Program-made: the position numbers and the translations under genes
Part shown: positions 852 to 37,846 of the stretch, one piece after another
How the letters are laid out: each line of letters begins with the position of its first letter
Numbering within the stretch: position 1 is the first letter of the stretch
The notes under the pieces: generated by a model
Told to the model about the DNA's origin: nothing
Databases searched by the model: none
Seen by the model: the letters and a program-made list of their open reading frames with translations, nothing else
Virus record (IMG/VR): IMGVR_UViG_2529292883_000006
Reading direction: 5' to 3' (one strand)
From: a virus
Lineage: Duplodnaviria > Heunggongvirae > Uroviricota > Caudoviricetes
Length of the DNA: 40,402 nucleotides

Positions 852-879
852 ATTAATTTCTTGACCTTCCCCTTGCTGG
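852..879. repeat. attL core (left copy of 28-bp direct repeat)
   Basis: Exact match to 37819-37846. The flanking sequence diverges immediately (ctgg|gaggatctc here versus ctgg|aaggtttaacc at attR). Confidence 0.7.
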
Positions 880-937
880 GAGGATCTCAATAGGCGCAGT
901 ACCGTAACATACTGCGCCAATTCAACATTTTACAGAC

Positions 938-1975
938 TTAACTACCCTCTAAAATCCCCACTTTGCCTCCAAAGTGTGGACACAATGTGGACATTCCCAC
1001 AAGAGGATTATAATTCACTGCATCCAATAAATAATCAGGTGCAAAATGAGCATATGTCATTGTTTGTGAAATATCTGCGTGACCAAGAATTCTTTGTAAC
1101 GCAATTATATTCCCGCCCTTCATCATAAAATGAGTAGCAAACGTATGACGCAATGCATGAGCTGCCTGACCATCAGGTAAATTAGGTTTTGCCTCTTTCA
1201 TTTTTAAACGAAAAGTTTTGTAACTCACACGAAAAAGTCGACCAGATTCGCGATGCCTTACAATATTTACAACCTCATCTGAAACGGGAACAACTCGCCG
1301 ATCACCATTTTTTGTAAGCGTAAATATAACCCTATTGCCCACAATGTTTTCGGCTTTGAGCTGATAAGCCTCACCCCACCTTGCACCAGTTGCAAGCAAG
1401 AGAACTGCAATCCGGAAATAATCACCAGAGCATAAGGATAATAACCGCTTAACCTCAGACTCAGTAAAGTAAGACATCTCAGTTTTTGGCTCTTTTAAAG
1501 CAGATATTGCCGCCACAGGATTTTCACCATGAAACTCATCGATCTCAGCCATCGCCTTAAACATACCGCTCAGGGCAAAAAGGTCATGGTTAATCGTTGA
1601 AGCCTTTATACCTTGCCCCAATCTATACGCCCGGTATTCGATAAGGCATCGACCATCAATCTGGTAAATCATGGGATCCCCCATATCCTGGCAAATACAG
1701 CTTAACGCACTAAGCCTACGATTAGCGTAGTTCTTATTACGTCCAATGAGCTGCCACCACAAAGCGATAAACTCACTCAGTCGCCGCTTGTCTGCTGGAC
1801 GACTCAGGTAGTCATGGTTTTGATACTTTGCAATGATGCTTCGTTCAAAAGCATGCGCCTCCGCTTTTCTCTCAAACTTCCGCCGGATACGCTTTCCGTC
1901 GCGCCCGCGCGGCCTTACATCCACTTCATAGCGACCATCTTCGAGCTTCTTAACAGACACAAGAAGTCCCTCCAA
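938..1975 (-). CDS. int: Tyrosine site-specific integrase (P2 Int-like)
   Basis: 345 aa. The N-terminus KKLEDGRYEVDVRPRGRDGKRIRRKF and the C-terminal HALRHTFATHF...LQRILGHADISQTMTYAHF (catalytic R, H-x-x-R, Y) follow the phage-integrase pattern. It sits adjacent to attL. Confidence 0.9.
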   Translation of the reverse strand: MEGLLVSVKKLEDGRYEVDVRPRGRDGKRIRRKFERKAEAHAFERSIIAKYQNHDYLSRPADKRRLSEFIALWWQLIGRNKNYANRRLSALSCICQDMGDPMIYQIDGRCLIEYRAYRLGQGIKASTINHDLFALSGMFKAMAEIDEFHGENPVAAISALKEPKTEMSYFTESEVKRLLSLCSGDYFRIAVLLLATGARWGEAYQLKAENIVGNRVIFTLTKNGDRRVVPVSDEVVNIVRHRESGRLFRVSYKTFRLKMKEAKPNLPDGQAAHALRHTFATHFMMKGGNIIALQRILGHADISQTMTYAHFAPDYLLDAVNYNPLVGMSTLCPHFGGKVGILEGS

Positions 1976-2029
1976 CAGTCAGTTCACCATCCTGAAAACA
2001 AATGGTGAAAATGTAATGTTTATAAAGCG

Positions 2030-2329
2030 TTAACCAATCTGTTTCCCGGAGGGGCCAGATTGTGTTGTCTCTGGCCCAGTGTGTGCAAGAGCCGGGGCGA
2101 TCTGACCTCGGCTAGGGTCTATACGGTCATACATGAACCAATCTTGATATTTATGGAAACGGGGATGACCAAAGAGTTTGATCGCAGCCTCCAATGACAT
2201 TTTCGCCTTGCCTAGCTCATAACCGTTGTACGTACCATAATTTACACCAATCAAATCAGCAACTTGCTTAGATTTAAGGCGTTCTGAATCTCGGATTAAC
2301 TGTAGTTTTTCATGTTGTGGTATTGACAT
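2030..2329 (-). CDS. Immunity repressor, P2 C-like (HTH)
   Basis: 99 aa with the motif ...GQIAPALAH... and an HTH segment (QVADLIGVNYGTYNGYELG). It lies immediately upstream of int on the same strand, as in P2. Confidence 0.8.
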   Translation of the reverse strand: MSIPQHEKLQLIRDSERLKSKQVADLIGVNYGTYNGYELGKAKMSLEAAIKLFGHPRFHKYQDWFMYDRIDPSRGQIAPALAHTGPETTQSGPSGKQIG

Positions 2330-2453
2330 AATATATCAGATCTCTCATTGTATACATTAATTGACACTCGCAAGCGGCGTTGACCGCTCATAACACCAAG
2401 GGCTTGCTGAGCTAAACATGCCTCAACAAGCCTCAAGCAGTGGAGTTTATCAA
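2330..2453. promoter_or_regulatory. Divergent lysogenic/early promoter-operator region (putative)
   Basis: Intergenic region between the divergent repressor gene and the early operon. It contains direct repeats ttgacactcg / ttgaccgctc. No promoter was mapped. Confidence 0.3.
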
Positions 2454-2915
2454 ATGAAAGAAATGCGAGAAAACGAATTAAATATGGAAACTCATTTTTT
2501 ACGTCAGTTCCCGATAGACAACGGACGAGCTCTGCGTACCTGCAAAATGACAGAGACACAAGCTGCGCGTATCAGGGACATCAGCCTGGAAGAGCTACAA
2601 AAACAAATCTTCGCTACTCCGGAAGAGTTTGCTTATCTAACTGGTCGCACCCTCAAATCGGTGCGCAACCTGATGGATCGTGCGCAGGTGCCAGTTCATA
2701 GAGAAGGCATGCCCGGGTCAAAGCGCCCTAAACGCTTCATCATGTTGCAAGAATACTGGAAAGCTGTTGCTCATTGCCGCGCTCTCATCACTCCGGAAGA
2801 AAAGCACTACATTGATCGTCTGATGCGTGACAAGAAGACTTATCGCCGCACAACCAGTAGAGGGCATCGGGTTCTAAAACGCAATAGCATCAGCGCACTG
2901 CAGGCAGGCTTATAA
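2454..2915 (+). CDS. First early-operon protein (Cox/Apl position); putative DNA-binding regulator, start uncertain
   Basis: ORF 2418-2915. The ATG at 2454 has a GGAG 10 nt upstream. The protein is basic; no family was recognised with certainty. Confidence 0.4.
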   Translation: MKEMRENELNMETHFLRQFPIDNGRALRTCKMTETQAARIRDISLEELQKQIFATPEEFAYLTGRTLKSVRNLMDRAQVPVHREGMPGSKRPKRFIMLQEYWKAVAHCRALITPEEKHYIDRLMRDKKTYRRTTSRGHRVLKRNSISALQAGL

Positions 2916-2917
2916 AC

Positions 2918-3331
2918 ATGAATACTGATAGCACAGATAAAGCGTTACTGAAGCACTTGGAAACCCTTAAAAACGAAAAGCCACACCAGAAGGTTTTACT
3001 CGTTTTTCCAGGTAAGCCGCAGGTCGAAATCAGCGTTGACTACCACGAATTACACAGAACGTTCGCTGGCCTGATGGCATTAAAATCAAAGCTTCAGAAT
3101 GGCAAAGATTTGAAAGATATCACTCTGCATCCTGACGATGAATACGGCCATTTTTGTCGAGATGGCATCAAAGAAACTATTGGAATGATTTTAGAACCAA
3201 TATACGGAGTTGCGCTCCGTTTCCCCGCCAAAGAAGTCTTTAAGCTTTATCGACAAATTTTAAGCAGTGACAACATGGTTATTGAGGTCGGAAATGTGCC
3301 AGAGAAAATCTCCGGCACTGGAGTTAAATAA
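2918..3331 (+). CDS. Hypothetical early protein
   Basis: 137-aa ORF, tightly packed after the preceding gene. Confidence 0.5.
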   Translation: MNTDSTDKALLKHLETLKNEKPHQKVLLVFPGKPQVEISVDYHELHRTFAGLMALKSKLQNGKDLKDITLHPDDEYGHFCRDGIKETIGMILEPIYGVALRFPAKEVFKLYRQILSSDNMVIEVGNVPEKISGTGVK

Positions 3332-3514
3332 TCACTCAGGAAGAATCCATGCACTTGCCTGAGGATATTTTCTTAACGCAAGAGTACGCAAGTCATTCGC
3401 GAGCTGACGAATGGTTTTTGATGGCTCTCCTTTATTCGGAGGATTGACCGGCGCTTCCCCTAACACAGAAATTGCCGCATTTAGCGCATCAATAACCTTT
3501 TTATCATAGGACAT
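3332..3514 (-). CDS. Hypothetical small protein (60 aa), convergent and abutting the previous gene
   Basis: ORF with AAGGA-type RBS (rc of 3521-3527) upstream of the ATG. It meets the 2918-3331 gene end-to-end with zero spacing. Confidence 0.4.
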   Translation of the reverse strand: MSYDKKVIDALNAAISVLGEAPVNPPNKGEPSKTIRQLANDLRTLALRKYPQASAWILPE

Positions 3515-3607
3515 ATTTTATTCCTTGTGGTTGGTTGAACACGCGCCCTTTACAGCCCCTTCAAGACTGCGGGCGCTGGAAAAATACCACAAAACCATGC
3601 GCCGGGC

Positions 3608-4006
3608 ATGGCTAAAACCCGGCACAAATTCGCAACAGCAGCAGGATATTTTTGTATGAAGCAACGACGTAATTCTTCACAGCAACGCTTCCGCAACGGG
3701 GCGGAACTCCACGCTAACCGTTTCGCTACCAGCGCATCACGCAGCAGCTCTCGCTACAGCCTGAGCGAAACACACGCCACACCTGATGGCCATCCCGTAA
3801 AACAAATTGGCGAACACACCTGGCTGATTGAAAAAGCTGGAATCGTGGTCCACAAATGCCCACGCAATCCGTTTACCGGAAGCCGCATTTTTGCACTAAG
3901 CAGCGGCGACAATCAGTTCGGGCAGGATTTCACATTATACGAAGCACTTCGCACGGTTGATCGTCTGCTTCGCGGACAAAGTTTTATTAAACAGGTTGAT
4001 TTATAA
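3608..4006 (+). CDS. Hypothetical early protein (start may be the internal ATG at 3656)
   Basis: ORF in the early operon. No SD is visible before 3608; a weak one precedes 3656. Confidence 0.45.
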   Translation: MAKTRHKFATAAGYFCMKQRRNSSQQRFRNGAELHANRFATSASRSSSRYSLSETHATPDGHPVKQIGEHTWLIEKAGIVVHKCPRNPFTGSRIFALSSGDNQFGQDFTLYEALRTVDRLLRGQSFIKQVDL

Positions 4007-4016
4007 CAGGTGATTT

Positions 4017-4268
4017 ATGACCAAAGAGTATGCACAAGGTGTATTTATCCGTTTTATTGATTCTCGCGGTGAACTGTTATTGCGTGCATCAGCTATCAAT
4101 GGTGTGGCCAAGACAAAAGACGCAACCACTCATATTTATTTGGACAGCACCGCACAACTGATCGTGGAGCTTCCGTACCAGACTGTACGTGAAGTCATTA
4201 GCGAAGCTGAAAAGGCACGTCAGATTAATAGCGATGAACCATACATCGAAATTATCTGCATGGATTAA
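4017..4268 (+). CDS. Hypothetical early protein (83 aa)
   Basis: ORF with short spacing to its neighbours. Confidence 0.5.
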   Translation: MTKEYAQGVFIRFIDSRGELLLRASAINGVAKTKDATTHIYLDSTAQLIVELPYQTVREVISEAEKARQINSDEPYIEIICMD

Positions 4269-4303
4269 GAAGCTGAAACCCAGAAGACAGATTAAAGGGT
4301 GTT

Positions 4304-4549
4304 GTGATGGGCAAAGAATATAAAACTCTCATTAACAAAGCACTTGAGCGTTTTTATTTTCGCTTAAGTGCATCAGGCGCTCATGCTGAACGTGCAGCCC
4401 GTGACTCATTGACCAGGGCAATCCGGAGTCTGTATGACGTGGCTTTTTACGCTGATGATCTGGATGCACTTAACGAACTTTCCGAGCTTATCTGTGCAGC
4501 AGAATGTGGGGAACATATTGAACCGTATAAGCTGGGGAATATTGCATGA
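4304..4549 (+). CDS. Hypothetical early protein (81 aa)
   Basis: ORF with GGGTG-type RBS region upstream. Confidence 0.5.
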   Translation: MMGKEYKTLINKALERFYFRLSASGAHAERAARDSLTRAIRSLYDVAFYADDLDALNELSELICAAECGEHIEPYKLGNIA

Positions 4550-4659
4550 GTATATTTATCTCATGGCTTGTTCTGATTATTTCGGTGGCCTGCGCCATTG
4601 GGATTATGCGAATTATTCATTCAGTAAAAAAGATTGAACGCTTTTTCACTGACGAATAA
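4546..4659 (+). CDS. Putative small single-TM membrane protein (37 aa)
   Basis: ATGA start/stop overlap with the upstream gene. Translation MSIFISWLVLIISVACAIGIMRIIHSVKKIERFFTDE has a hydrophobic core. It is below the ORF-track size cutoff. Confidence 0.3.
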   Translation: MSIFISWLVLIISVACAIGIMRIIHSVKKIERFFTDE

Positions 4660-4751
4660 CAGCTTAAACAAAACACCAGATTAAACCCGAAAATCTGAAA
4701 ACTATCCGCATTCGCGGAGGTATTCGCACACGTAAATAACGGAGATATAAA

Positions 4752-5168
4752 ATGAACGCAAAAGAAGAAGGCATTATCGACACATTAAAAAAAATATCAG
4801 AAGCGGAAGATGAAATGGCTAAAGATGCCGTGAAGCGTAGCCAACATATGGCAGCACTTCACGCACTGACCATTGCAAAAATCACCGCTGACGCAGCCAA
4901 AATTATTGAGGAACAGAGCAAAGAAATCGACACTCTTAAAACACAGTCAACAGTTGCAGCCATGAATCCGTCCAGCATTGGACGCTGCATTTATATTCTT
5001 GGTTCAGCAATGATGCTGCAATACACCATTATTGCCGAACTGCACGGCAAATACCTGATAACGCCTTACCACACAAAAGAGTCAGAGCTTCTGACAAATA
5101 TCCGCCTGATAGAACGCTCTCAAGCTGTATTCATTGATGACGCGCAACGTGCCGTATTTAACGCATAG
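4752..5168 (+). CDS. Hypothetical early protein (138 aa)
   Basis: ORF with GGAG RBS (cggagatataaaATG). Confidence 0.5.
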   Translation: MNAKEEGIIDTLKKISEAEDEMAKDAVKRSQHMAALHALTIAKITADAAKIIEEQSKEIDTLKTQSTVAAMNPSSIGRCIYILGSAMMLQYTIIAELHGKYLITPYHTKESELLTNIRLIERSQAVFIDDAQRAVFNA

Positions 5169-5191
5169 GGTTACTGGACAAAGGGGGCGCA

Positions 5192-5395
5192 ATGGCAATT
5201 AAGCATTTTTCCGTCGTTCGCTTTACCTCCAGAGGGCGCGAATACGAGGTCGACGAACGCCTGATTACCACTATCGACAAACATCGTTCGGAAAAGGATG
5301 CACACCACATCTACCTCACTGACGGCACTTACTTCTGCGCCACCAACGTGGCGCGAGTAAATCTTATCCGACAGGTACAGGAGCCACGCAGATGA
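5192..5395 (+). CDS. Hypothetical early protein (67 aa)
   Basis: ORF with GGGGG RBS; its stop overlaps the next start. Confidence 0.45.
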   Translation: MAIKHFSVVRFTSRGREYEVDERLITTIDKHRSEKDAHHIYLTDGTYFCATNVARVNLIRQVQEPRR

Positions 5396-5658
5396 CCATT
5401 CTGGACTACATCGCTACTCATCCGGGGTGTAGCGGCGGAGAGATCGCCGCAGCACTGAATACCCCAACCACAGCCATTAATGCTGAGTTACGCCAACTTT
5501 GGCGCGGCGGCTTAGTCATCAGAACAAACCGCAGCACAGGTGGTCGCGCTCGCAAAACTGGAGGCCAGGCTTCTTACCACGTAAACCCGATGCCGTTCGG
5601 GTGTAGCAATCCACTTATTCACATGTTTAACCAGCTACTGAAGGAAGCCAGAACATGA
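5392..5658 (+). CDS. Putative winged-helix DNA-binding protein (88 aa)
   Basis: Translationally coupled ORF. The segment GGEIAAALNTPTTAINAELRQLWRGGLV resembles an HTH/wHTH recognition region. Confidence 0.5.
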   Translation: MTILDYIATHPGCSGGEIAAALNTPTTAINAELRQLWRGGLVIRTNRSTGGRARKTGGQASYHVNPMPFGCSNPLIHMFNQLLKEART

Positions 5659-5954
5659 GCACCATCAACCACCAGAAGCTACGCGAACTGGCATTTGCCC
5701 TGCAACGAATGGCAACTCCTCAAAAATTACTGGCATTTCGCGCAATGCTCTCGCCGTCTGCTGTGCTGGCACTGCTGGATGAGCTGGAGCACGCCAGAAC
5801 CACGGCTCCTGCCATTCGCCTGACACTCCATCATGAAATCAAGGATTTCTGCGCGACGCTGGAGTCACCAGGTGAATCAGAAACACCGGAGGCAATGCAG
5901 CAAGAGCTGCTGCAACGCATTGACAAGGTTTTCGATTTTTTCCTTAACCAGTAA
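5655..5954 (+). CDS. Hypothetical early protein (99 aa)
   Basis: Coupled ORF (ATGA overlap). Confidence 0.5.
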   Translation: MSTINHQKLRELAFALQRMATPQKLLAFRAMLSPSAVLALLDELEHARTTAPAIRLTLHHEIKDFCATLESPGESETPEAMQQELLQRIDKVFDFFLNQ

Positions 5955-5964
5955 GGGCCGCAAC

Positions 5965-6168
5965 ATGAACAACAAGACATGGTTTCGTGCATATGCATGG
6001 GCGCTGGTATGCGTCCTCGTCTCTCTCATTCTGTATGTAGGGGTACTCCCCCGAATGATTTCATCAGACAGCTCCTTCCTGGTATTGCTGGGCATTTTCA
6101 TTGCCATGCTGTACCCGGCAGGCGTTGTTCGCCTTTTCAGTAAGTACATCAAGGAAATTAAACAATGA
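5965..6168 (+). CDS. Small two-TM membrane protein (67 aa), coupled to the downstream SPFH gene
   Basis: Translation has two hydrophobic helices (WALVCVLVSLILYVGVL; FLVLLGIFIAMLY). AAGGG RBS. Its stop overlaps the ATG of the next gene. Confidence 0.5.
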   Translation: MNNKTWFRAYAWALVCVLVSLILYVGVLPRMISSDSSFLVLLGIFIAMLYPAGVVRLFSKYIKEIKQ

Positions 6169-6995
6169 AGAAATTCAGACTCTTTCAGATTCTCCCGCTT
6201 TTTGCCGCCATCCTGCTGGTTGGCTGCGATCGCGTTGAGCCAGGTAATGTGGGCATCAAAGTCAACAAGCTGGGCGACGACAAAGGCGTTGGCGAAGTGG
6301 TTGGCGTTGGTCGCTACTGGACTGGCTGGAATACCGAGGTTTACATCTTCCCGACCTTCAAACAAATGAAGACCTACGATGAGCCGTTCAGCTTTCAGAT
6401 GAGTGACGGCACAACCATCGGCTATCACATCGGTGTGGCCTACAAGGTTGATCCATCCAAAGTTACTACAGTGTTTCAGACCTACCGCAAAGGCGTGGAT
6501 GACATTACCGACACTGACCTGCGCCAGAAGATCGCCGACGCACTCAACCGACTGGCCAGCAAAATGACCACCGATAAATTTATCGACGGTGGCAAGTCTG
6601 AACTGCTGGATTCAGCACTTAAAGACATTCAGGCAGAAATGACACCTATCGGCATTCAGGTAATGAGCCTCTCTTATGTCGGTAAACCGGAATACCCACC
6701 AACCGTTATCGACAGCATTAATGCCAAAGTCACGGCAAACCAGAAAACTCTGCAACGCGAGCAGGAAGTCAAGCAACGCGAAGCAGAAGCCAACATGCTG
6801 CGCGCAGAAGCTGCCGGACAAGCTGATGCCATTCGCACAAAAGCCCAGGCTGAAGCCGACGCCATTCGTTTGCGCGGTGAAGCTCTGCGTCAGAATCCCG
6901 GCGTTATGGAGCTGGAAGCGATTAACAAATGGAACGGCACGCTGCCGCAATACATGACCAGTAATACCGCTGTTCCGTTTGTTCCGGTGAAGTAA
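6165..6995 (+). CDS. SPFH/Band-7 (prohibitin/stomatin-like) domain lipoprotein
   Basis: Signal peptide with lipobox (LLVGC). The C-terminal Ala/Glu-rich coiled-coil stretch (EQEVKQREAEANMLRAEAAGQADAIRTKAQAEADAIR) is typical of SPFH proteins. Confidence 0.75.
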   Translation: MKKFRLFQILPLFAAILLVGCDRVEPGNVGIKVNKLGDDKGVGEVVGVGRYWTGWNTEVYIFPTFKQMKTYDEPFSFQMSDGTTIGYHIGVAYKVDPSKVTTVFQTYRKGVDDITDTDLRQKIADALNRLASKMTTDKFIDGGKSELLDSALKDIQAEMTPIGIQVMSLSYVGKPEYPPTVIDSINAKVTANQKTLQREQEVKQREAEANMLRAEAAGQADAIRTKAQAEADAIRLRGEALRQNPGVMELEAINKWNGTLPQYMTSNTAVPFVPVK

Positions 6996-7000
6996 TTAAA

Positions 7001-7046
7001 CCCGGCCAGTGAAAATCGCTGGCCGGAGCAGTATCAGGATTTTTTA
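7001..7046 (+). terminator. Putative intrinsic terminator after the early operon
   Basis: Hairpin ccggccag...ctggccgg followed at a distance by a T-run (ttttt at 7041-7045). Confidence 0.4.
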
Positions 7047-7362
7047 GTATGCCGTTCTCACAAAAAAACCGCTTGCCATGCCGCAATCAGTCAGGTTACA
7101 TTTCCGCTGCACCTCATAAAACGGGTGCCGGGATTTCCACCCCGCTGACAACTACAGCGCACAACCGCGCCAGCGGTTTTTTTGTGCGTACTGTATCGCC
7201 ACGTCTTTTTCGCACACGAATTATGGTGGGGCGTATGGGGCCGACTTCGGTCGGGCCGGGTTCTGTAGTTGCCGGTTGTGGAAACCCTGTACGTCTCACC
7301 ACCCCGAGTTTTCCACCTCTGGATGGTGAGTTTTCAAAACTTGCAACTACAGAGGCCACACC

Positions 7363-7593
7363 ATGGCAAACCGCAAACATCACCGCGCTATCGCGGAGCG
7401 TCGTCACATCCAGACTGAAATCGATCGCAGACTCACCCGCGCTGCACACATCGCCTTTATCATGCAATCCAACACATTGCACAGACTCAACAGCACTATT
7501 TCAGCCGACTACTGCGCCGCTGTATTCAGCTATCTGGCGGAAGACCTCCTGTCTCTTCAGGATCTCATCCAGCAGCAAAACAAACTCCATTAA
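7363..7593 (+). CDS. Hypothetical small protein (76 aa), weakly supported
   Basis: ORF preceded by ~300 bp of structured non-coding sequence and followed by a stem-loop at 7603-7636. Weak RBS. Confidence 0.3.
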   Translation: MANRKHHRAIAERRHIQTEIDRRLTRAAHIAFIMQSNTLHRLNSTISADYCAAVFSYLAEDLLSLQDLIQQQNKLH

Positions 7594-7687
7594 TTCCTGT
7601 TCCAGGCCTCTCCTGCGCTTTGCAGCGGGAGGCCTGCGCACACCTATAACAAGGAGATTAGCTATGGCTAATGTTTTTGTTTACTCA

Positions 7688-8101
7688 TTATTTAAAGGGG
7701 GATTCGTCACCCCCTTCAAAATCATCATCGTCAAAATAATCATCGAAATCATCATCATCTTCTTCGGGCGCAGGAGGGTTTACAGGAATATCAACAAGTT
7801 TCATTTTTCCACTTGCTATATCAGCCTTTACTTTTGGCAAGGCAAAAACCGCGTCATATCCGCGAAAAACCTCCCCATCACCAAGAATATTGGTGAGCCC
7901 GAGTCTTTTCAAAAACTCACAAATAGAAACGTAATCTCCAAGCCCAGAACCGGTAATAGCTCGGTAAATAAATCCATTATGAAAAAGAGCAACTGGATAG
8001 GGAGCTGCTCCCCACGGATCTCGAGGACGCCCCTCAAGCCACAGACTTATTTTTTCATCGTAATCAGGTCGTTCGCACTCTCTTGTATATCGATGTTTCA
8101 T
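7688..8101 (-). CDS. Hypothetical protein with strongly acidic C-terminal tail (EEDDDDFDDYFDDDDFEGGDE), opposite orientation to the early operon
   Basis: 137-aa ORF on the minus strand with its own upstream region (8102-8199). Composition is unlike the overlapping frames. Confidence 0.6.
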   Translation of the reverse strand: MKHRYTRECERPDYDEKISLWLEGRPRDPWGAAPYPVALFHNGFIYRAITGSGLGDYVSICEFLKRLGLTNILGDGEVFRGYDAVFALPKVKADIASGKMKLVDIPVNPPAPEEDDDDFDDYFDDDDFEGGDESPFK

Positions 8102-8199
8102 TGGTTTTTTCTCTCTTTTTACATGGAAATAAATAATTTACGAAACACAACCACTAACCGCCAAGCCCCTAATGAAAATTTATACAAGAGGGGAGTTGT

Positions 8200-11426: not shown

Positions 11427-11471
11427 AGCGCGCACAAAACAGGCAAAAGCGGGATTTAAAAATCCTGTAAA
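11374..11471. repeat. Two ~25-bp imperfect palindromic repeats (aaacgggattcacaaatcccgtaaa / aagcgggatttaaaaatcctgtaaa); candidate centromere (parC-like) or origin-associated site
   Basis: Two copies ~70 bp apart. The first lies in the last codons of gene A, the second in the A-parM intergenic region. Each has internal dyad symmetry. Confidence 0.4.
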
Positions 11472-11502
11472 CGATTAATTAATCAACATAAGGAAAAGCG
11501 AC

Positions 11503-12462: not shown

Positions 12463-12466
12463 ATCA

Positions 12467-12781: not shown

Positions 12782-12795
12782 AAACAGGAGTAACT

Positions 12796-13083: not shown

Positions 13084-13094
13084 TGGAAGTAATC

Positions 13095-13454: not shown

Positions 13455-13457
13455 GAA

Positions 13458-13502: not shown

Positions 13503-13522
13503 GGACAAGCGAAGCGCGTCAG

Positions 13523-22907: not shown

Positions 22908-22910
22908 ACC

Positions 22911-30146: not shown

Positions 30147-30148
30147 CA

Positions 30149-30700
30149 ATGTTGCATTTAAAAAATATTACTGCGGGCAATCCGAAAACAGCAGAACAAT
30201 ATCAGATGACAAAACAATATGATGTCACCTGGCTTTTTTCGGAAGACGACAAAAACTGGTATGAAGAACAGAAGAACTTTGCCAGCGACACAATAAAAAT
30301 GGTTTACACCGGGGACGGGCGCGTGGTGTGGGTCGGTAAGGATGTGACAGGCATTGAACCCCGTAACGCCAGTGTTATTGAAGTTCCGGATATTACCGCT
30401 AATCGCCGTATTACCGCGCCTGGTTACTGGTTTTACCGCGATGGCAATTTTATCTTCGACTACAAACTTAAAGCGGAAGATGAGCGTGATGCACTGTTAA
30501 AACAGGCCAGCATCATGACCAGCGAATGGGAAAAAGACCTGCTGCTGGGATTAATCAGCGACGAAGACAGGGAGAAATTGAAAGCCTGCCGTATTTATAC
30601 AAAAACGTTACGGGAGATGACATTCAGCCAGGTTACAGATAAAGCATCGTATGCCGCGATTGTATGGCCAGAATTACCGCAGAACATTAGCGAGAATTAA
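30149..30700 (+). CDS. Tail fibre assembly chaperone (Tfa/gpG-like)
   Basis: 183 aa. The C-terminal region DERDALLKQASIMTSEWEKDLLLGLISDEDREKLKACRIYTKTLREM...WPELP is characteristic of Tfa chaperones. Confidence 0.7.
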   Translation: MLHLKNITAGNPKTAEQYQMTKQYDVTWLFSEDDKNWYEEQKNFASDTIKMVYTGDGRVVWVGKDVTGIEPRNASVIEVPDITANRRITAPGYWFYRDGNFIFDYKLKAEDERDALLKQASIMTSEWEKDLLLGLISDEDREKLKACRIYTKTLREMTFSQVTDKASYAAIVWPELPQNISEN

Positions 30701-30706
30701 GAAGTA

Positions 30707-31903
30707 ATGAGCGCACTGTTGACGAAAGCATTTGAAAAGTGGGTTGCTGAATGCACAGCCAGTAATTTACCTGCACGCCCTGACACTATTATTTTTGCCC
30801 TGATGGAGCGGGAACCAACGCGCGAAGATAATACCGTTCCGGAAGAAAAAATCACATATGCTGTGAATGAACTGACCTACGGCCAGTTAAGCCAGAACAA
30901 TATTGTGTGTAGCGCGGTCGTTCCTGATGACTGCGCATTCAGCTATGACTGGATTTGCCTCATCCATCAGCCCAGCGGAACACTATGCGGCGTAATAAAA
31001 ACGCCTGTTCGTCAGAAACATGTTGGCGAGTCACTGGTCAGGAATTTCACGATTACTTATCAGGGCGTGGCTCAGGCTGCGCAGATTACCGTTCCTCCAC
31101 AAAGCTGGCAGGTAGATATTTCTCCTGAACTGAAATCAATGCTGAAAATCCCTAACCGCTTGTCAGAAATTGCGGCAGAAGGCGAAGAGGCGCAACAGGA
31201 GTCCCGCGATAATCTGGGACTGAAAAGCGCCGCCACAATGGAGCCACAGAGTGATATTTATGACCGGACGGAAGGCCGACTGGCGATACCGGGGACACTG
31301 GGTTTTGGTGAAATTTTTCATATTAATGACAGGATTAGCTTTGACACCAGAGCCGAATTTGATACCTGGATAAGAGGCGCAAAACCGGGGCGTTATCTGG
31401 TTTATGCAAACCCCGACATAGTGATACCCAAAGTGCTATTCAGTGGAATTCTTGAAATTATCTGGGCTTCAGCTTTAACTACTACAACTAACGGCGTAAA
31501 CAAGATTTATTTTTTTTACAGTGTTAATGGTGCGGTTTATTACGCCCGTGGCACTTCTACTGTCCCGGCATGGGAACTCTGGAGACGAACAGATAAGGAA
31601 TTAATTGATTTTTTGTCCGGTACAGTTTATTCCGACGGGCTGAATGCATCACCGGAGGCTGGCGGTATTGTTCAGGCAGCATTTCGTTATCAGGATAAGC
31701 CCGGAGGATACACCCTGAAGCGAGGTGATGCTTTAAGTGGTTCACTTCTGAAGCCATATATAATTACAGTCGATGAAAGTGGCGAACAGACTCTTCATAT
31801 TAAAGAGGAACATACGTTTCCCGGATATTACTGGAGTCTGACCTCCTATCCGTGGCTGAAAACGAGTGATTATATTCTGGGAATATTTATAAGGTATCGT
31901 TAA
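30707..31903 (+). CDS. Tail fibre protein 2 (paralogous N-terminal domain)
   Basis: 398 aa. The N-terminus (...WVAECTASNLPARPDTIIFAL...) parallels fibre 1 (...WCANQIISGKPARPDTFVFAY...). Confidence 0.6.
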   Translation: MSALLTKAFEKWVAECTASNLPARPDTIIFALMEREPTREDNTVPEEKITYAVNELTYGQLSQNNIVCSAVVPDDCAFSYDWICLIHQPSGTLCGVIKTPVRQKHVGESLVRNFTITYQGVAQAAQITVPPQSWQVDISPELKSMLKIPNRLSEIAAEGEEAQQESRDNLGLKSAATMEPQSDIYDRTEGRLAIPGTLGFGEIFHINDRISFDTRAEFDTWIRGAKPGRYLVYANPDIVIPKVLFSGILEIIWASALTTTTNGVNKIYFFYSVNGAVYYARGTSTVPAWELWRRTDKELIDFLSGTVYSDGLNASPEAGGIVQAAFRYQDKPGGYTLKRGDALSGSLLKPYIITVDESGEQTLHIKEEHTFPGYYWSLTSYPWLKTSDYILGIFIRYR

Positions 31904-32475
31904 TGAACATTACAGATATAAAAAATCCTGTCAGCCTTGAACACGGGGCGATAAATTGCGAAATATTATTTGACGATATGGAGGAATATGTTCCCTATAC
32001 CGCGACACCGACAGACAGCGATAAAACGGGGAAGCAGGTATGGCAGGAGCTACAAAGCGGTAAATGGGGTGAAATCGCCCCGTTCATCGTCACGCCGGAA
32101 CTTATTTCGGCAGCGAAGAATGCCAAAAAGCGGGAAATTGAGGCGTGGCGTACAGAACAGGAAGCGCAGCCGTTCACGTTCGAATGGAACGGTCGCACCT
32201 GGAATGCTGGCCCCGACTCAATGGCTCGCCTTTATCCGGTGGTAATGGCTGCGAAATCCGATACGGCGCGTGACGTGATGACGTGGGGTGACGCCGATAA
32301 TCAGCAGGTGAAGCTGTCGATGTTAAAGCTTGAAGAGCTGGCTACAGCAATGGCACAGGCGCAACTGAACCGCAACGATGAAATTTATCGACGTCAGCGA
32401 CAGATGAAGGACGTGCTGGATGGCCTGAATAATCTTGCCGACATCCGCGCTTTTCAGGCTGGAGAGTCAGAATGA
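31903..32475 (+). CDS. Putative tail fibre chaperone / fibre-associated protein for the second cassette
   Basis: 190 aa, translationally coupled to fibre 2. Assignment by position. Confidence 0.35.
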   Translation: MNITDIKNPVSLEHGAINCEILFDDMEEYVPYTATPTDSDKTGKQVWQELQSGKWGEIAPFIVTPELISAAKNAKKREIEAWRTEQEAQPFTFEWNGRTWNAGPDSMARLYPVVMAAKSDTARDVMTWGDADNQQVKLSMLKLEELATAMAQAQLNRNDEIYRRQRQMKDVLDGLNNLADIRAFQAGESE

Positions 32476-33185
32476 AATGGGAAAAGGCAATTCTGCGCCC
32501 GTCAGCCATGAACATTAAATGTTCAGTGGTTTGCCTTCATCCATGGTCAGAGAATACCGGAAACATCACACCATCGGGGCGTTATCTCAGCCCCGAAAAT
32601 GCTGTATCTGCACTTTTACCCTATCTGAAAGAAAGCACAGAAAAGGACATTGTGGCGCTGTTATTTTGCGCCCCTTCTGCTGGCGAGTTTTTATCACTCG
32701 CCAGGCAATTTTCAGGCGCTTTTCCGTTGCCAGAGGTGGGGCGAATGTCCCGCATGATTTCCAGTCAACTTTCACTGGCCATCAGCAGAATGCAAATCCC
32801 CGCCAGACCGGCAACATCACTTCCGGAACCGATAATGCTGTCGACACAGACCACTCGCAGCATGTCGCTGGCAGCAACCATTGCACAGGCAGCCACTCCT
32901 GCCGCCACATCACCGGAAACATTGTCATCATTACTGCGTCAGTTCATGAATGCGAGAGATAAAGCCTTACAGGAAATCGCTGATCAGCAGGCTGCACTCC
33001 GGCAAAAATTTTGCCCGGTGTGGCGCTTTTGCTACAAGGGAGCCCTTAGCCAGGCCGAAGTGCTGATACAAAAAAACATCCCACACCCCGAGTGGGTTTT
33101 TACAGCTGTGATGCTGTTCGTCGGCGATAATCTCTCATCACTAAGGGAAGCACTACATGACCCAGATGATTGTCCTTGCGCTTGA
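32472..33185 (+). CDS. Hypothetical protein in tail operon
   Basis: 237-aa coupled ORF. No recognisable family. Confidence 0.4.
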   Translation: MKWEKAILRPSAMNIKCSVVCLHPWSENTGNITPSGRYLSPENAVSALLPYLKESTEKDIVALLFCAPSAGEFLSLARQFSGAFPLPEVGRMSRMISSQLSLAISRMQIPARPATSLPEPIMLSTQTTRSMSLAATIAQAATPAATSPETLSSLLRQFMNARDKALQEIADQQAALRQKFCPVWRFCYKGALSQAEVLIQKNIPHPEWVFTAVMLFVGDNLSSLREALHDPDDCPCA

Positions 33186-33732
33186 CGGGGAAGCCATTCT
33201 GCTGCGCAACATCACCGTCAGCGCCACCATGCAACTACCGGACAAAGATATGTCCGGACAGTCAACCAGCACCACGAGCGCCCAGCAGGGAAACAAGGCT
33301 AAAGAGCTGCGCGTGTCGGGGGTTATTGATTTTAACGATGAAGCTATTCTGACCCGTATTTTTCAGCTTGCGGAGGCAACAGAAAGCAACGGTGCTAAAA
33401 AAACATATCGCATTGCTAACGCTACCGCGAAGGCAATCAATATGCGACAGGGGGTATTTTCTGGTGGCATTGATGCCACGGAACAACAGGGAAAAATGCA
33501 CTGGCAGATCACCTTTACTCTCAGGGAAAAATTAAGCGTGCCAGAGAAAGCATCCGCACGCAGCGGTTCGCAGAAAACCATCGCCAGACAGCAGACCCAG
33601 AATGGCAGCGAACAGGCACCAGACAAAGGCATGAATACGCAAAGTTCGTTCTGGAAAAAAATCAATGATGCCGTTGGCTCTGGTCTGGATGCTGTTGGCA
33701 TCGGGAGCGTGAAAGAGGAAGGGAAAACATGA
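33157..33732 (+). CDS. Hypothetical tail-associated protein
   Basis: 191-aa ORF coupled to the downstream hub-like gene. Confidence 0.4.
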   Translation: MTQMIVLALDGEAILLRNITVSATMQLPDKDMSGQSTSTTSAQQGNKAKELRVSGVIDFNDEAILTRIFQLAEATESNGAKKTYRIANATAKAINMRQGVFSGGIDATEQQGKMHWQITFTLREKLSVPEKASARSGSQKTIARQQTQNGSEQAPDKGMNTQSSFWKKINDAVGSGLDAVGIGSVKEEGKT

Positions 33733-35426
33733 AATTAATACAACGCTGCATGATTAATGGCGAACGGGTGGAAATTGCCGATATAAACCTTGTTCTTACC
33801 CTGAATGCTGCCGGTCGTGGCTTCATTTCTGTTAACAATCTGTCACCAGAAAAAAGCTTTGCCGGCGCAATGGTACAAATTGACCTCGGCCGTGACGGTG
33901 AAGCATGGCGCTATTTCTCCGGCTACATTGAGCGCGATCAACCTGCTGAAAATGGCTCACGTCGTCTTTTTATCCGCGAAGCAGCTGCGGTGCTGGATTT
34001 TGATTTCCCTTGCTCCATGCAACACCCGACATTGCGGGGGGTGCTCGATAATCTGGGGCGACAAAGCGGTATCGTTTTTATCACTCCGGATGCAGATTAT
34101 TCCAGCATACCAACTCCCTATATCACCCACAGCGGCAGCGGGACGCAGTTACTTAGCCAGCTGGGGCGTGCATTCAGAATCAGCGATTACGTCTGGCACC
34201 CTATGCCGGACGGTTCTGTATTTGTGGGAAGCGCAGCTGATTCACGATTTGCCAGTATTACGATGCCGGATATTCCGCAACAGTACACACTCGGGCAAAG
34301 CGGCGGAAACAGCATCGACATCATGTTTATGGAAACTGTGCGACCGGGCGTGAACCTACCGGCAGGGCGCATTACCCGTGTAGCCCTCAACAACGAGAAA
34401 ATGACCCTGACATGGGAGCGCCTTACCGCCACGGGTAACCCTGTTTCCAAATCACCATTACGCAGACAAATGGAAACACAGTTCCCGGAACTGGCCAGCG
34501 GTACGCTACATACCCGGCTGGCGCGCGTCATTGCGCCAACGGAGCCCACCACCCTGGGCGATGTGGCCGACAGTTTCCGCCCACGCTACGCCGTCGATGT
34601 GCAGTTGCTTGATGAGAACGGCAACGATAAAAGCGACACGCCCGTTTACCCGGCAGTACCGCTCCCCGTCCCCATGGCTGGCAGTGAGGCGGGATGTTAT
34701 GCCTACCCGCCAGCAGGCACCATCGTGGAAATATCCAACATTGAAGGACGTCCGGACAAACCTGTTATCAGGCAAATCTTACCCGCTGGCCATAACCTGC
34801 CTGATGTAAAGCCCGGCGAACAGCTGCAGCAACAGCGCGCAGAAGTGTTTCAGCGCGTCACGACTGACGGAAGCTGGCACAGAGAAACCGATCAGCAAAT
34901 CAGGGAGCATTCAGCCAGACGAACCATTAACAGCGATCAGGAAGAACGCACAACAACAACCAGAACAACAACAGTACAGGCAAACGACATAACCAGCGTT
35001 CTGGGAACCAGCAAAGTAATGGCAGGGCAAATAGAGCACCTTACTACCGGCCATTACGCGATCGCAGCCAGTGAGCATATCCAGATGGTAGCGCAGGATT
35101 TGCTGACCAAACTTAAAGGAGCAACGTCAACGATTGAACGTGACCTTACTGAAAACGTGGGAGGCCGCAGAACATGCAGGGCGGACGGCGGTCTGGAGTT
35201 TACCGCCCCGACAGTATTTATTGGTCGCGGTGGCTCACGGGAAAAATCCGGACTTAATCTGCTTACGTTACTGATTGATATTCTGGATCTGATTCAATTA
35301 CTGGCCACACACACCGCAAACCATACCCATAGCAATACCGGCTCACCAACAAACAGCAGCGAACTTGCCGCAGATGCCCTGCAAGCCACGAGGCTGCGCG
35401 AAAAATACGGCGATATTATCGCCTGA
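33729..35426 (+). CDS. Putative baseplate hub / late control gpD-like tail protein
   Basis: 565 aa, last gene of the tail operon, followed by a strong intrinsic terminator. Function inferred from position and size. Confidence 0.4.
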   Translation: MKLIQRCMINGERVEIADINLVLTLNAAGRGFISVNNLSPEKSFAGAMVQIDLGRDGEAWRYFSGYIERDQPAENGSRRLFIREAAAVLDFDFPCSMQHPTLRGVLDNLGRQSGIVFITPDADYSSIPTPYITHSGSGTQLLSQLGRAFRISDYVWHPMPDGSVFVGSAADSRFASITMPDIPQQYTLGQSGGNSIDIMFMETVRPGVNLPAGRITRVALNNEKMTLTWERLTATGNPVSKSPLRRQMETQFPELASGTLHTRLARVIAPTEPTTLGDVADSFRPRYAVDVQLLDENGNDKSDTPVYPAVPLPVPMAGSEAGCYAYPPAGTIVEISNIEGRPDKPVIRQILPAGHNLPDVKPGEQLQQQRAEVFQRVTTDGSWHRETDQQIREHSARRTINSDQEERTTTTRTTTVQANDITSVLGTSKVMAGQIEHLTTGHYAIAASEHIQMVAQDLLTKLKGATSTIERDLTENVGGRRTCRADGGLEFTAPTVFIGRGGSREKSGLNLLTLLIDILDLIQLLATHTANHTHSNTGSPTNSSELAADALQATRLREKYGDIIA

Positions 35427-35463
35427 TCACCAGACATAAAAGCCACATAAGCGCCCATCACAC

Positions 35464-35490
35464 AACGCACGGCACCGGCCGTGCGTTTTT
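35464..35490 (+). terminator. Rho-independent terminator of the tail operon
   Basis: 10-bp stem aacgcacggc / gccgtgcgtt with an accg loop, followed by tttt. Confidence 0.6.
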
Positions 35491-36099
35491 CGTATCTGCC
35501 ACCTGATTAATGCGTTCTGCGTGCCATTCTGGCGCTGTATGCACACACTGCGTAAACGGTGTAACGTAAAGCGTGAGGTGACGTAAACCGCGCTACCCCC
35601 TCCAACCCGCGGGTTTTGTCTCGAAACACTTTTTCAGTTTTCTGCCGTGCAAAAATGACCGCCAGCCCGCGCAGCAACTGAGGGAAAAGCGAAGATCTGA
35701 AATTTCACGTTTTGAAATTTTTTGCAGTTTTCAGAGGGATTTTTACGATCTCATGAATGGCAGGAGAAAGAAAACAGGCTGATATTAAAAGAGTTTTTAT
35801 ACTTTACGTGGGACAAGACACGATCGCGAAAGGATCGCGTTAAACAACCCTCAAACAAAGAAGCCCGACGTAGCGCGGCCTGCGCAAAATCAAGAGTCAG
35901 AATTAAACTGAAAAAAGGATCAATACCGCGCCTCGATAGCACATGACGATCTACGCAGCAACAGGACGAAAAAAACCGGCGCGAACGCCGGCGGAAGCAT
36001 GTATCAAATGCGTGACTGAATAATGTCTGCGGTCGGGAATTTTACATCAGAAGGCTGATAAGTCTCAACGGATTGAAACAAGGGAAAAAACCAGGCTAG

Positions 36100-36460
36100 A
36101 ATTCGCGCGGGTGCCTTTCGGCTGATGGCTGGAGGGAATACCTGAAGGCCGGATGTGGAAAGGCCCCGGAAAACATTTTTGTTTAACCGAGGCCCTAACC
36201 ATCTACCCTAGACAAGTGATAGGTTAGCGCCTCCCCGAAAAAGGAGCAAGCGCTATGTCGCAAAAATCGCTTACGGCCATTACGTTCTGCGTGACGGCAA
36301 TCCTCATCATCTGGATGCTACACGGTTCGCTGTGTGAGATACGGATGAGCTTCTGGGGAGCGGAGTTTGCGGCGTTCTTACAGTGTAAACAGTAAGGAAA
36401 CCGCGACGGGGGAGCAATCCCCCGTCAATCGGTTGCTAAGGTAAGGTCGTAAAGGCACCC
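36100..36460. ncRNA. hok/sok-like type I toxin-antitoxin locus (mRNA with 5'/3' fold-back elements; antisense RNA expected on the minus strand)
   Basis: The 5' element gggtgccttt (36108-36117) is exactly complementary to the 3' element aaaggcaccc (36451-36460), as in hok mRNA fold-back inhibition. A GC hairpin lies at 36405-36426. Confidence 0.45.
36255..36395 (+). CDS. hok: Hok/Gef-family membrane toxin (46 aa)
   Basis: Translation MSQKSLTAITFCVTAILIIWMLHGSLCEIRMSFWGAEFAAFLQCKQ has the N-terminal TM helix and SLCEIR...AAF motif of Hok/Gef. AGGAG RBS. Confidence 0.65.
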   Translation: MSQKSLTAITFCVTAILIIWMLHGSLCEIRMSFWGAEFAAFLQCKQ

Positions 36461-36593
36461 TATCTTCTAACATATGAGTGGAAAATCCTACGGGGAAAAA
36501 TGTAAACCTCGTCCTTGCCCACTCATAAGAAGAAATTATCATTTCACTATTCGATTTTCAAAGAATCAATGTAGGTAAAAAGAAGATAGCTAT

Positions 36594-37166
36594 ATGACTA
36601 AATATATTTTTGCTCTTTATTTTATATTATTTGGTAATACGAAACATCTATTCGAATGCTGGAAAGTTGAAGTCATCCGTCGCGATCGATTTTTAATTCA
36701 TCGCCTACTAAGAGAGAAGAGATCACGCTCAAGAAAATACATCTTCTGGTGGAGACTTGCAAATGAAATGTTTATCCATGGCGGGAAATATACAAAAAAA
36801 GCAGCGAAGAAAATCAACCGCAAATTACTCAGTGAATACAGCTGTGATCTTGGTCTAGGGCTGACCGTTGGCAAGGGTCTGACAATTATCCATCACACGG
36901 GCATCGTTGTTACCAGTACGGCAATCATTGGAGAAAATCTGACCATCAGACAAAATACAACCATTGGTCGTAGTCAATCGGATAATGAACACGATAGAAT
37001 AACAATTGGCAATAACGTTGATATTGGCGCCCACTCATTCATTCTGGGCTCTGGTTTTAAAATTGGAGATAATGTCAAGATCGGGGCAATGTCATTTATC
37101 ATGGATGAAATTCCTTCAAACTGTACTTATGTCACCCGGAAAGAATCAAGGATAATATCTAAGTAA
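36594..37166 (+). CDS. Hexapeptide-repeat acetyltransferase (serine O-acetyltransferase / CysE-like left-handed beta-helix)
   Basis: Repeated [LIV]-G-x4 hexapeptides (GLTVGKGLTIIHHTGIVVTSTAIIGENLTI...IGNNVDIGAHSFILGSGFKIGDNVKIGAMSFI). AT-rich relative to the prophage core. Confidence 0.7.
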   Translation: MTKYIFALYFILFGNTKHLFECWKVEVIRRDRFLIHRLLREKRSRSRKYIFWWRLANEMFIHGGKYTKKAAKKINRKLLSEYSCDLGLGLTVGKGLTIIHHTGIVVTSTAIIGENLTIRQNTTIGRSQSDNEHDRITIGNNVDIGAHSFILGSGFKIGDNVKIGAMSFIMDEIPSNCTYVTRKESRIISK

Positions 37167-37287
37167 AATTAAAACTCAACCAATTACCACAAAAAACGCA
37201 GCGTAAAATCATGTGTTTACTTTTTGCCCCCTTGAGGGGGCATTTAAATATCAACAACATTCACAAAAACGAACTAATAAAACGAAA

Positions 37288-37604
37288 TCACTCCCCATTC
37301 TCCCGCTTCCATTGCTGGATCATTTCATCGGTGACATCACTCCCATAACATATCACGTTATATCCTCCACTACGACTATATGCACTGCGCCACCACATCT
37401 ACTACCATTCCTTGCATAATTATAAGGACACGCACAATTACCTGGATACGATTCAATAGATTCTTTAATTATTTCTTTCTTGATCTGAGCGTCAGACTTT
37501 TCAGTTGCCGCATATCCACCAAAAGACACCAAACAAAGGCAGATTACTATTAATAAACCACATCGCATACAGATACTCTCTATCAATAACCAATCACAAA
37601 TCAC
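37288..37604 (-). pseudogene. Small Cys-rich secreted protein with apparent frameshift
   Basis: The 37353-37604 ORF has a signal-peptide-like N-terminus and Cys-rich motif (GNCACPYNYARNGSRCGG). A second frame starting at the GG stays open to 37288 (RSAYSRSGGYNVICYGSDVTDEMIQQWKRENGE). Confidence 0.35.
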
Positions 37605-37818
37605 CTCATAAATTGATATGAGGAGTGCAACGCCTTAAGCAGGAAGACGCAACCTCGATAATATGCAGTGCAATTCAACAAAAAAAGAACTATATCAAAG
37701 AGATAGCACCCTTATCAGTGCTGCAAACACTAGCGTTTGCAGCAACAAAAAACAACAAATCAGTCGAAATGTGGACACTATGTGGACGCTGATTAAATAA
37801 TCCTTTCCTAATCAACAA

Positions 37819-37846
37819 ATTAATTTCTTGACCTTCCCCTTGCTGG
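37819..37846. repeat. attR core (right copy of 28-bp direct repeat)
   Basis: Exact repeat of 852-879. It is followed by the intact copA promoter sequence. Confidence 0.7.

Follow-up and report, generated by a model that had tools for sequence, protein, structure and literature searches.

A P2-like prophage inside the CueR-dependent copA promoter: junctions, integrase and the fate of the promoter

How does a prophage come to lie inside a regulated promoter, and what becomes of that promoter on either side of the inserted DNA? The question is raised by IMG/VR virus record IMGVR_UViG_2529292883_000006, a stretch of 40,402 nt (the window, in whose coordinates all positions are given, 1 being its first letter), in which a prophage separates glsA, the gene of glutaminase A, from copA, the gene of a copper pump, and its CueR-dependent promoter (PcopA). 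Phage attachment (att) sites are usually tRNA genes, tmRNA genes or anonymous intergenic sequences, whereas the docking sequence here is a well-characterised sigma-70 -35 element together with a MerR-family operator, and a single clade of integrases has it as target in about ten genera. The explanation that we favour, and consider very probable, is that a temperate phage of the Peduoviridae has been inserted at the upstream half of PcopA by site-specific recombination mediated by its integrase (Int). The evidence consists of the junctions, the empty site, a contiguous attP in a close relative, predicted arm sites and the recurrence of the same target across genera. We infer, in addition, that the phage is still active.

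The insertion site and its junctions

The prophage is bounded by an exact direct repeat of 28 bp, ATTAATTTCTTGACCTTCCCCTTGCTGG, which was found by reading the sequence and by repeat comparison at 852-879 and again at 37819-37846. Its two copies start 36,967 bp apart, which is the repeat-to-repeat length of the unit, and 31 of 32 positions are identical when 852-883 is compared with 37819-37850. With up to three mismatches allowed, the 28-mer matches the window at these two places alone, and 100 dinucleotide-preserving shuffles gave no match. The left junction, attL (B-O-P', 852..883, + strand), contains the repeat at 852-879 and, within it, a 20-bp core at 860-879; the right junction, attR (P-O-B', 37819..37858, + strand), contains the repeat at 37819-37846 and the core at 37827-37846, and is at the same time a regenerated PcopA. 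The left host flank is the 5' part of glsA (1..669, - strand) and the right one is copA (37898..40402, + strand), a complete open reading frame (ORF) of 834 codons, both genes being annotated as such in the matching Escherichia coli genomes. No tRNA or tmRNA gene was found in the window, junctions included.

A synthetic empty site, in which window positions 352-851 are joined to 37819-38318, was compared with complete E. coli genomes. It is present as one ungapped piece in 5,401 of the 5,426 genomes, and its best match, 99.8% identical, is annotated with glsA on one side and copA on the other. In a base-by-base alignment with strain EC1515 the left part of attL equals the left part of attB, the right part of attR equals the right part of attB, and the 28-mer is single-copy in the empty site. 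The four-way alignment of attB, attL, attR and attP reads as BOB' x POP' giving BOP' + POB'. An earlier interpretation made from the letters of the window (hereafter the sequence-only reading) had placed the prophage inside the CueR-regulated copA promoter, in the glsA-copA intergenic region, and had proposed an alignment with an unoccupied copy of that region as a check. The exact repeat and the uninterrupted site bear this placement out: prophage-free genomes hold the 28-mer, and the junctions align cleanly.

Three different prophage lineages use the glsA-copA site in E. coli. In about 18 complete genomes another P2-like prophage has a related int (~83% nucleotide identity across the junction) beside glsA, and two of these prophages were examined. 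That of LH50-c is a different phage at the same site, with a classical P2-type late region, and that of H1827/12 is again a different phage at the same site, in a decayed state. Strains 33-6, 58-3 and CP131_Sichuan carry IS1-truncated remnants of the window's own phage. These remnants (L002 and L003 among them) were found in isolates from pigs and chickens in Sichuan. What is left of them on the left is attL and the initial 100-170 bp of the prophage, followed by IS1A; int through the tail-fibre genes are deleted, and attR with the right end is 98.5% identical to the window. The core common to all E. coli junctions is 20 bp long, CTTGACCTTCCCCTTGCTGG. Host identity ends right after CTGG, where the phage side continues with GAGG in the window, GGAC in LH50-c and TTTT in H1827/12. 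Since host identity always ends at this point, the crossover would take place within the 20-mer.

The integration module and its use in other genera

The integrase is encoded by int (938..1960, - strand), whose product of 340 amino acids belongs to the P2 family of tyrosine integrases (Pfam PF00589, E = 7e-21, and PF24624); gene calls in the window were made from the ORF list with Pfam, PHROG and Rfam searches. Its likely start is the GTG at 1960, which is preceded by a GGAGG Shine-Dalgarno sequence. Int is colinear with P2 Int, with 52% identity over 323 amino acids, and its motifs ATGARWGEA, HALRHTFATH and TYAHF align with the same P2 Int residues, in the R...HxxR...Y arrangement. Residues 1-30, MSVKKLEDGRYEVDVRPRGRDGKRIRRKF, align with MAIKKLDDGRYEVDIRPTGRNGKRIRRKF of P2, as expected of a P2-type N-terminal arm-binding domain, and Int has the Y, D and R positions of the N-terminus that are given as P2-type discriminators in PMC3448106.

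The same paper gives the consensus of P2-type arm sites, tgTGGaCa (PMC3448106). In the P' arm, two predicted Int arm-type sites, TGTGGACA, lie 11 bp apart at 975..993 (+ strand) inside the 3' end of int, as in P2, and in the P arm a repeat search revealed two copies of TGTGGAC, again 11 bp apart, at 37770..37787 (+ strand). TGTGGAC is therefore found twice per arm in the same orientation, at 975/986 and at 37770/37781, and other lineages have the P-arm pair in their attR, as the viral contig L092, described below, has it in its contiguous attP. At the border between the P arm and the core there is a predicted IHF site, AATCAACAAATTA (37810..37822, + strand). It is the single match to the consensus WATCAANNNNTTR in the 40.4-kb window, where 1.66 would be expected, and it is placed like the annotated IHF site of P2 attP. 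attP and attB have the same core, of which attL and attR each hold a copy.

A hairpin, GGCGCAGTAC-loop-ATACTGCGCC as read on the + strand (893..918, - strand; RNAfold -19.7 kcal/mol), separates the int stop codon from the core. A hairpin of 10-12 bp stands at the same spot in 17 lineages (the window, L004, L005, L007-L014, L016, L062, L074, L089, L092 and L094) with differing stem sequences, a compensatory pattern. It mostly has no clear U-tract downstream, and probably acts as a terminator or stabiliser of the int 3' end. Since glsA has the same orientation as int, read-through from int, or from the phage operon of repressor and int, would enter glsA here, and cueR in other genera, with the hairpin lying in between. 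Upstream of int, in the position of P2 C, there is a candidate immunity repressor of the helix-turn-helix type (2030..2329, - strand; Pfam HTH_3), whose homologues in related prophages are annotated as helix-turn-helix proteins.

The target is shared well beyond E. coli. When the Int protein was compared with one genome per species, relatives 68-90% identical were found to adjoin the same core, or a close variant of it, in nine other genera, the species being Citrobacter youngae, C. amalonaticus, Pantoea stewartii, Edwardsiella piscicida, Kosakonia sacchari, Yersinia pekkanenii, Rouxiella silvae, Rahnella inusitata, R. ecdela, Erwinia tasmaniensis and Serratia fonticola. The core lies about 60 bp past the int stop codon in these relatives; its variant forms read ...CCTTGATGG in Kosakonia and Erwinia, the same with TTTGACC in Pantoea, and ...CCTTAGGGG in Edwardsiella. 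At Int identities of 62% or less, the arm repeats are kept and the core is different.

The gene on the other side of the core varies. Local tblastn places cueR directly beside attL in six loci (L010-L013, L062 and L074), those of Kosakonia, Yersinia, Rouxiella, Rahnella inusitata, Serratia and Erwinia. Between the cueR ATG and the core there are only 7-10 bp in Yersinia, Rouxiella, Rahnella, Serratia and Erwinia, and about 75 bp in Kosakonia. At these loci cueR is co-oriented with int and begins about 100-150 bp behind the int stop codon, so that the 20-bp core and phage DNA are all that remains upstream of it. The native cueR promoter must have been on the copA side before insertion, and to judge from this arrangement such lysogens may rely on phage transcription to express cueR. 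In C. amalonaticus and S. fonticola copA is found across short remnants, where attR restores GGAAGG and the -10 element.

A scan of viral contigs with the 20-mer returned twelve loci, mostly attL and attR of Escherichia and Rouxiella-type prophages. One of them, the metagenomic viral contig L092, carries a contiguous attP, with phage DNA on both sides of the core. On one side there are a baseplate gene (a homologue of window 33729-35426), cargo and a P arm with two TGTGGAC; on the other the core is followed by GAGG, the hairpin, the P' arm, an int 90% identical to that of the window and the repressor. L092 is the unintegrated arrangement.

Some clade members lie at other sites, namely L053, L059 (Erwinia tracheiphila), L076 (Kosakonia oryziphila), L019 (Candidatus Erwinia dacicola) and some fragments. 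Two of the off-site insertions resemble the right part of the core, and L053 reads GTCTTCCCCTTAATGG and then TGGG, behind a terminator, which hints that CTTCCCCTT..TGG may be the part of the core that matters for recombination.

The copA promoter at attR and attL, and competing explanations

PcopA contains a CueR core site, CCTTCC-N7-GGAAGG, an inverted repeat that overlaps the -35 element; its spacer is 19 bp long and the CueR box lies 2 bp from the -10 (PMC8169799). A scaffold from -40 to +14 is sufficient for CueR-dependent activation in vitro, and MerR-type activators work on the promoter whose spacer contains the operator (PMC8169799). All of these elements can be read directly in attR on the + strand: the -35 TTGACC (37828-37833), the left half-site CCTTCC (37832-37837), the dyad spacer CCTTGCT (37838-37844), the right half-site GGAAGG (37845-37850), which brings the whole dyad to 37832-37850, the -10 TAACCT (37853-37858) and, further on, the copA ATG (37898). 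The repeat begins at about -46 and takes in the -35, all of the left CueR half-site and of the 7-bp spacer, and the two bases GG with which the right half-site opens, and the overlap of the core with the -35 and the left half-site, as the sequence-only reading had it, is seen directly in these positions. That reading had also stated that attR restores an intact promoter, and this is the case, since attR is native PcopA base for base from about -46 to copA, identical to the promoter of the empty site. It has the same TTGACC, the same 19-bp spacer, the same TAACCT and the same CCTTCC-N7-GGAAGG 2 bp from the -10. Unlike the native E. coli promoter, it has the phage P arm and not glsA-copA intergenic DNA upstream of -46, and the lysogen holds a second, truncated promoter copy at attL. 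Because host identity runs from -46 onward and the -40..+14 scaffold suffices in vitro, it is a sound inference that copper control of copA would be kept in the lysogen.

At attL, TTGACC (861-866) is followed by CCTTCC (865-870), the spacer (871-877) and a degenerate right half, GGGAGG (878-883), so that the full reading is TTGACC TTCC CCTTGCT GGGAGG AT CTCAAT and 11 of the 12 dyad positions are retained. The sequence-only reading had assigned to attL only a half-site about 180 bp from the glsA start; the distance, 183 bp from the core to the glsA ATG (669), is right, and the half-site has to be replaced by this nearly complete dyad. At the position of the -10 there is CTCAAT, whose second position is not A, and the promoter scan made no call at attL, which was consequently rejected as a promoter. 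The stump is oriented antisense into the 3' end of int. In the other phages at the E. coli site the right half is GGGGAC or GGTTTT in place of GGGAGG, and the near-complete dyad is a feature of this prophage's lineage.

The mechanism that we propose would thus run as follows. A P2-type heterobivalent tyrosine Int would recombine attP with attB, the latter being the upstream half of the CueR-dependent copA promoter, and strand exchange would need identity within CTTGACCTTCCCCTTGCTGG, that is, over the -35, the left half-site, the spacer and the first GG. As attP carries CTTGACCTTCCCCTTGCTGG, recombination would duplicate that sequence. At attR the phage P arm would become joined to a promoter that is identical to that of the host from about -46 onward, and at attL the glsA-side host DNA would become joined to the P' arm, leaving a promoter stump with a -35 and a near-dyad and no -10. 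The target is evidently chosen because selection for CueR and sigma-70 binding holds the sequence nearly invariant, and the same integrase clade docks on the core in no fewer than ten genera, irrespective of the gene beyond it.

Several points weigh against this explanation or limit its reach. The DNA upstream of -46 is now a P arm with predicted Int and IHF sites, and it contains a sigma-70-like match, TGGACA-18-AATAAT (37772-37801, + strand; 10 of 12 positions), that is aimed at copA. The level of copA expression may therefore be changed. The specificity of the clade is not absolute, given the members at other sites (L019, L053, L059 and L076). Two apparent frameshifts, one in glsA and the other in a small gene of the cargo, point either to sequencing indels or to a degree of decay. 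No Cox excisionase was recognised; the ORF in the equivalent position (2418-2915, + strand) gave nothing in Pfam and only a weak match to a PHROG of unknown function. The sigma-70-like match is built partly of the P-arm Int sites, lies ~55 bp upstream of PcopA and is also present in the attR of LH50-c; it could give CueR-independent transcription into copA.

The frameshifts and the lack of a recognised Cox could also be taken to mean that the element is a fixed, defective remnant, whose repeats are a historical scar with no active recombination system at the promoter, as has become of the IS1-truncated derivatives in three E. coli genomes and of the decayed relative in H1827/12. We consider this unlikely. 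Every major module, from int through the endolysin, is encoded by long, uninterrupted ORFs; the 28-bp repeats match exactly and neither arm has lost its sites; and the close relative L092 exists unintegrated with its attP. The sequence-only reading had gone in another direction and suggested that prophage-end genes could be coupled to CueR, or CueR titrated. In that form, attL would be a working CueR operator or promoter that controls prophage-end genes, or that draws CueR away from copA and cueO. In its favour, attL combines TTGACC and CCTTCC-N7-GGGAGG in the native 19-bp geometry, with 11 of 12 dyad positions, and the same G-for-A variant occurs in several lineages and in the free attP. The defective -10 and the silence of the promoter scan argue against it, and so do the GGGGAC and GGTTTT of the other phages at the site. 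A transcript from attL would run antisense into the int 3' end rather than towards a phage gene. At the other end the phage gene nearest to attR (37353-37604) is divergent, being encoded on the opposite strand; it lies at a distance of more than 220 bp and is apparently frameshifted, so that the coupling finds no support at either end. Titration by one extra imperfect site is weak a priori, a single such site being a very small sink for the regulator. This possibility is therefore held to be very improbable.

A different kind of cross-talk would arise if the core-type sites of Int were the CueR half-sites themselves and the spacer CCTTGCT the strand-exchange overlap. In that case Int would have to contend with CueR and RNA polymerase for attB, attL and attR, copA would be damped by Int and IHF sitting on attR, copper would modulate integration and excision, and lysogeny would modulate copper tolerance. 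The core always holds the left half-site, the spacer and GG, and identity stops after CTGG, inside the right half-site. By our own reading of the sequence, the CueR dyad is the sole obvious inverted repeat in attB, and its 7-bp spacing is typical of tyrosine-recombinase overlaps. Most attP lineages have a G-rich degenerate right half (GGGAGG, GGGGGG, GGTGGG or GGAAAG), and the secondary site L053 retains CTTCCCCTT..TGG rather than the -35 part. CueR is known to occupy its operator both as repressor and as activator, and PcopA in both the apo and the Cu(I) form (PMC8169799, PMC5329002). On the other hand, the right halves GGGGAC and GGTTTT of two E. coli lineages indicate that a symmetric Int site is not required there, identity reaches further left (up to 28 bp) than a symmetric core needs, and the proposal, which is drawn from sequence, could correspond to a negligible effect in vivo. 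We regard such competition as quite unlikely.

In its widest form, to which we give less credence still, the idea would be that throughout the Enterobacterales one clade of P2-family integrases has come to specialise in an attB made up of the CueR box and -35 of PcopA, and that CueR and RNA polymerase compete with Int and IHF for these 20 bp. In genera with divergent cueR and copA, where the cueR ATG is 7-10 bp from the core, insertion would cut cueR off from its promoter on the copA side and place it downstream of the phage C-int operon, so that the prophage would take over cueR expression. If this were true, integration and excision would be sensitive to copper and CueR, and copA expression would be sensitive to lysogeny.

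With the recombinational explanation as the preferred one, the mechanism is of the known P2 type and regeneration of the target is a known principle; what is new is the use of a CueR operator and -35 as the target, and its use across genera. The locus offers a natural example of an operator, conserved by selection, that is exploited as a broad-host-range attB, and a compact 20-bp attB with its attP/Int pair for integration vectors, at a promoter whose structure with CueR and RNA polymerase is already solved. It is also a testable case of interference between a recombination site and a stress promoter, with a bearing on the copper tolerance of lysogens of poultry and pig origin, where copper is a feed additive. 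If only faithful regeneration of the promoter takes place, the site is simply a new entry among P2-like integration sites. Our literature search (copA, glsA, ybaS or cueR with prophage or integration site) found no published description of this attB. The accessible text of a survey of P2-like integration sites mentions neither copA nor ybaS nor ybaR, which does not cover its figure 5 and does not prove absence (PMC3448106). Co-regulation of copA and a phage integrase by SdiA in Enterobacter cloacae was considered and rejected, the loci ENC_22440 and ENC_02820 being far apart.

The prophage body and its relation to known phages

The body of the prophage (884..37818) combines a P88-like early region with P2-type late genes. 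The sequence-only reading had called the element a prophage, and its identity as such is confirmed by the presence of int, repressor, GpA, portal, terminase, capsid, sheath, tape measure, baseplate, fibres and endolysin. The GpA replication endonuclease is encoded at 8559-11426 (PF05840, E = 6e-131) and is followed by ParM (11503-12462) and by divergent portal and large terminase genes (13846-16660, PHROG). The late region further contains scaffold, major capsid, small terminase and tail sheath genes (PHROG major head and sheath), an M15 endolysin, the tape measure, Baseplate_J, two pairs of tail-fibre and assembly genes, a baseplate protein and cargo genes. An SPFH protein, a MarR-type regulator and an Rrf2-type regulator are encoded as well. 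The hallmarks of the Peduoviridae (GpA, divergent portal and terminase, GpO scaffold, GpN capsid and GpM) are all found, and the element looks like a complete, mosaic Peduoviridae prophage.

Several side features accompany these modules. Rfam searches detect isrK (63.6 bits) and the C4 antisense RNA (79.3 bits) next to each other at 7109-7306 (+ strand), a pair that constitutes the P1/P7-type antisense immunity element known in P88-like phages; an ORF of 384 amino acids that overlaps them (7049-8203) looks spurious. The ParM actin-like segregation gene and a possible partner ORF (11503-12781) belong here, as in P88, to a prophage that integrates. The cargo region ahead of attR contains a hok/mok-type toxin cassette (PF01848, 36097-36465; hok ORF 36255-36395, + strand), ~93-95% identical to the 'MokW-like host killing' cassette of P88-like phages. 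It is followed by a gene (36594-37166, + strand; GC about 0.40-0.44) for a hexapeptide-repeat acyltransferase of 190 amino acids (PHROG 2154, function unknown), which might serve in lysogenic conversion; the stretch from this gene to PcopA showed no + strand terminator. The last phage gene (37288-37604, - strand) encodes a small protein with a signal-peptide-like N-terminus and is apparently frameshifted, since the ORF 37353-37604 runs on in another frame as 37288-37398 (...RSAYSRSGGY...); relatives of ~85% identity are annotated as 'hypothetical protein' in roughly 600 E. coli genomes.

The host flanks show two peculiarities of their own. In glsA a run of 9 C at 21-29, compared with 8 C in LH50-c and CACCACCC in CP131_Sichuan, causes a frameshift with a stop at 1-3, which is either a homopolymer sequencing error or the mark of a glsA pseudogene. 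In copA, codon 10 (37925-37927), which sits just ahead of the first CXXC metal-binding motif, is TAC (Tyr) compared with GAC (Asp) in another E. coli copy, L091.

Among known phages, the prophage is most readily compared with Escherichia phage P88 (Xuanwuvirus), to which window 2761-11736 is ~93% identical. It shares with P88-like phages the SPFH and MarR genes, the C4/isrK RNAs, GpA, ParM and the hok/mok-like cassette, and differs from P88 in the int-attP module (884-2760), which is not shared. Over 884-20000, coverage in any phage record is at most 38% at ~93% identity, and hardly anything in 20000-37818, where most late genes lie, is matched at the nucleotide level in a set of 50,697 phage records. 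The last 18 kb are matched to ~2% by P88-like phages and to at most 7% by any record, the nucleotide matches being tail-fibre segments and the hok cassette only, while the proteins are recognised by PHROG profiles. Genus practice of the International Committee on Taxonomy of Viruses is based on about 70% nucleotide similarity over the full length. Membership in Xuanwuvirus was rejected on this ground, as coverage is too low in both segments. In the phage collection there is no record with an Int more than 62% identical, and no cultured representative was found. The closest phage Int, that of Yersinia phage vB_YenM_42.18 (61.6%), goes with the same arm repeats and a different core, so that this phage was rejected as a copA-promoter phage.

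As regards integration, the nearest model is P2 at locI. Both phages have a heterobivalent tyrosine integrase and the gene order repressor, int, attP, and in both the attP consists of P-arm Int sites, IHF site, core and P'-arm Int sites that overlap the int 3' end; in the annotated P2 record, a Cox region lies between the core and the P'-arm sites. They also have in common the arm repeat tgTGGaCa and an intergenic core of about 20-28 bp, equal in attP and attB (PMC3448106). The core of P2, AAAAAATAAGCCCGTGTAAGGGAGATT, is unrelated to the CTTGACCTTCCCCTTGCTGG found here, where the target is a defined sigma-70/CueR promoter element, no cox homologue is recognised, a conserved hairpin takes the place of the Cox sites, and the rest of the prophage is P88-like or novel. 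The principle of regeneration is shared with 186, HP1 and other P2-like phages that use tRNA genes, and with SopE-phi and Fels-2, which use ssrA: their attP carries a copy of the host end that rebuilds the target, and the conservation of the target gives the att site a wide host range (PMC3448106). In contrast to these prophages, the element that is rebuilt here is the upstream half of a promoter with its operator, so that what is regenerated is regulation and not a gene product.

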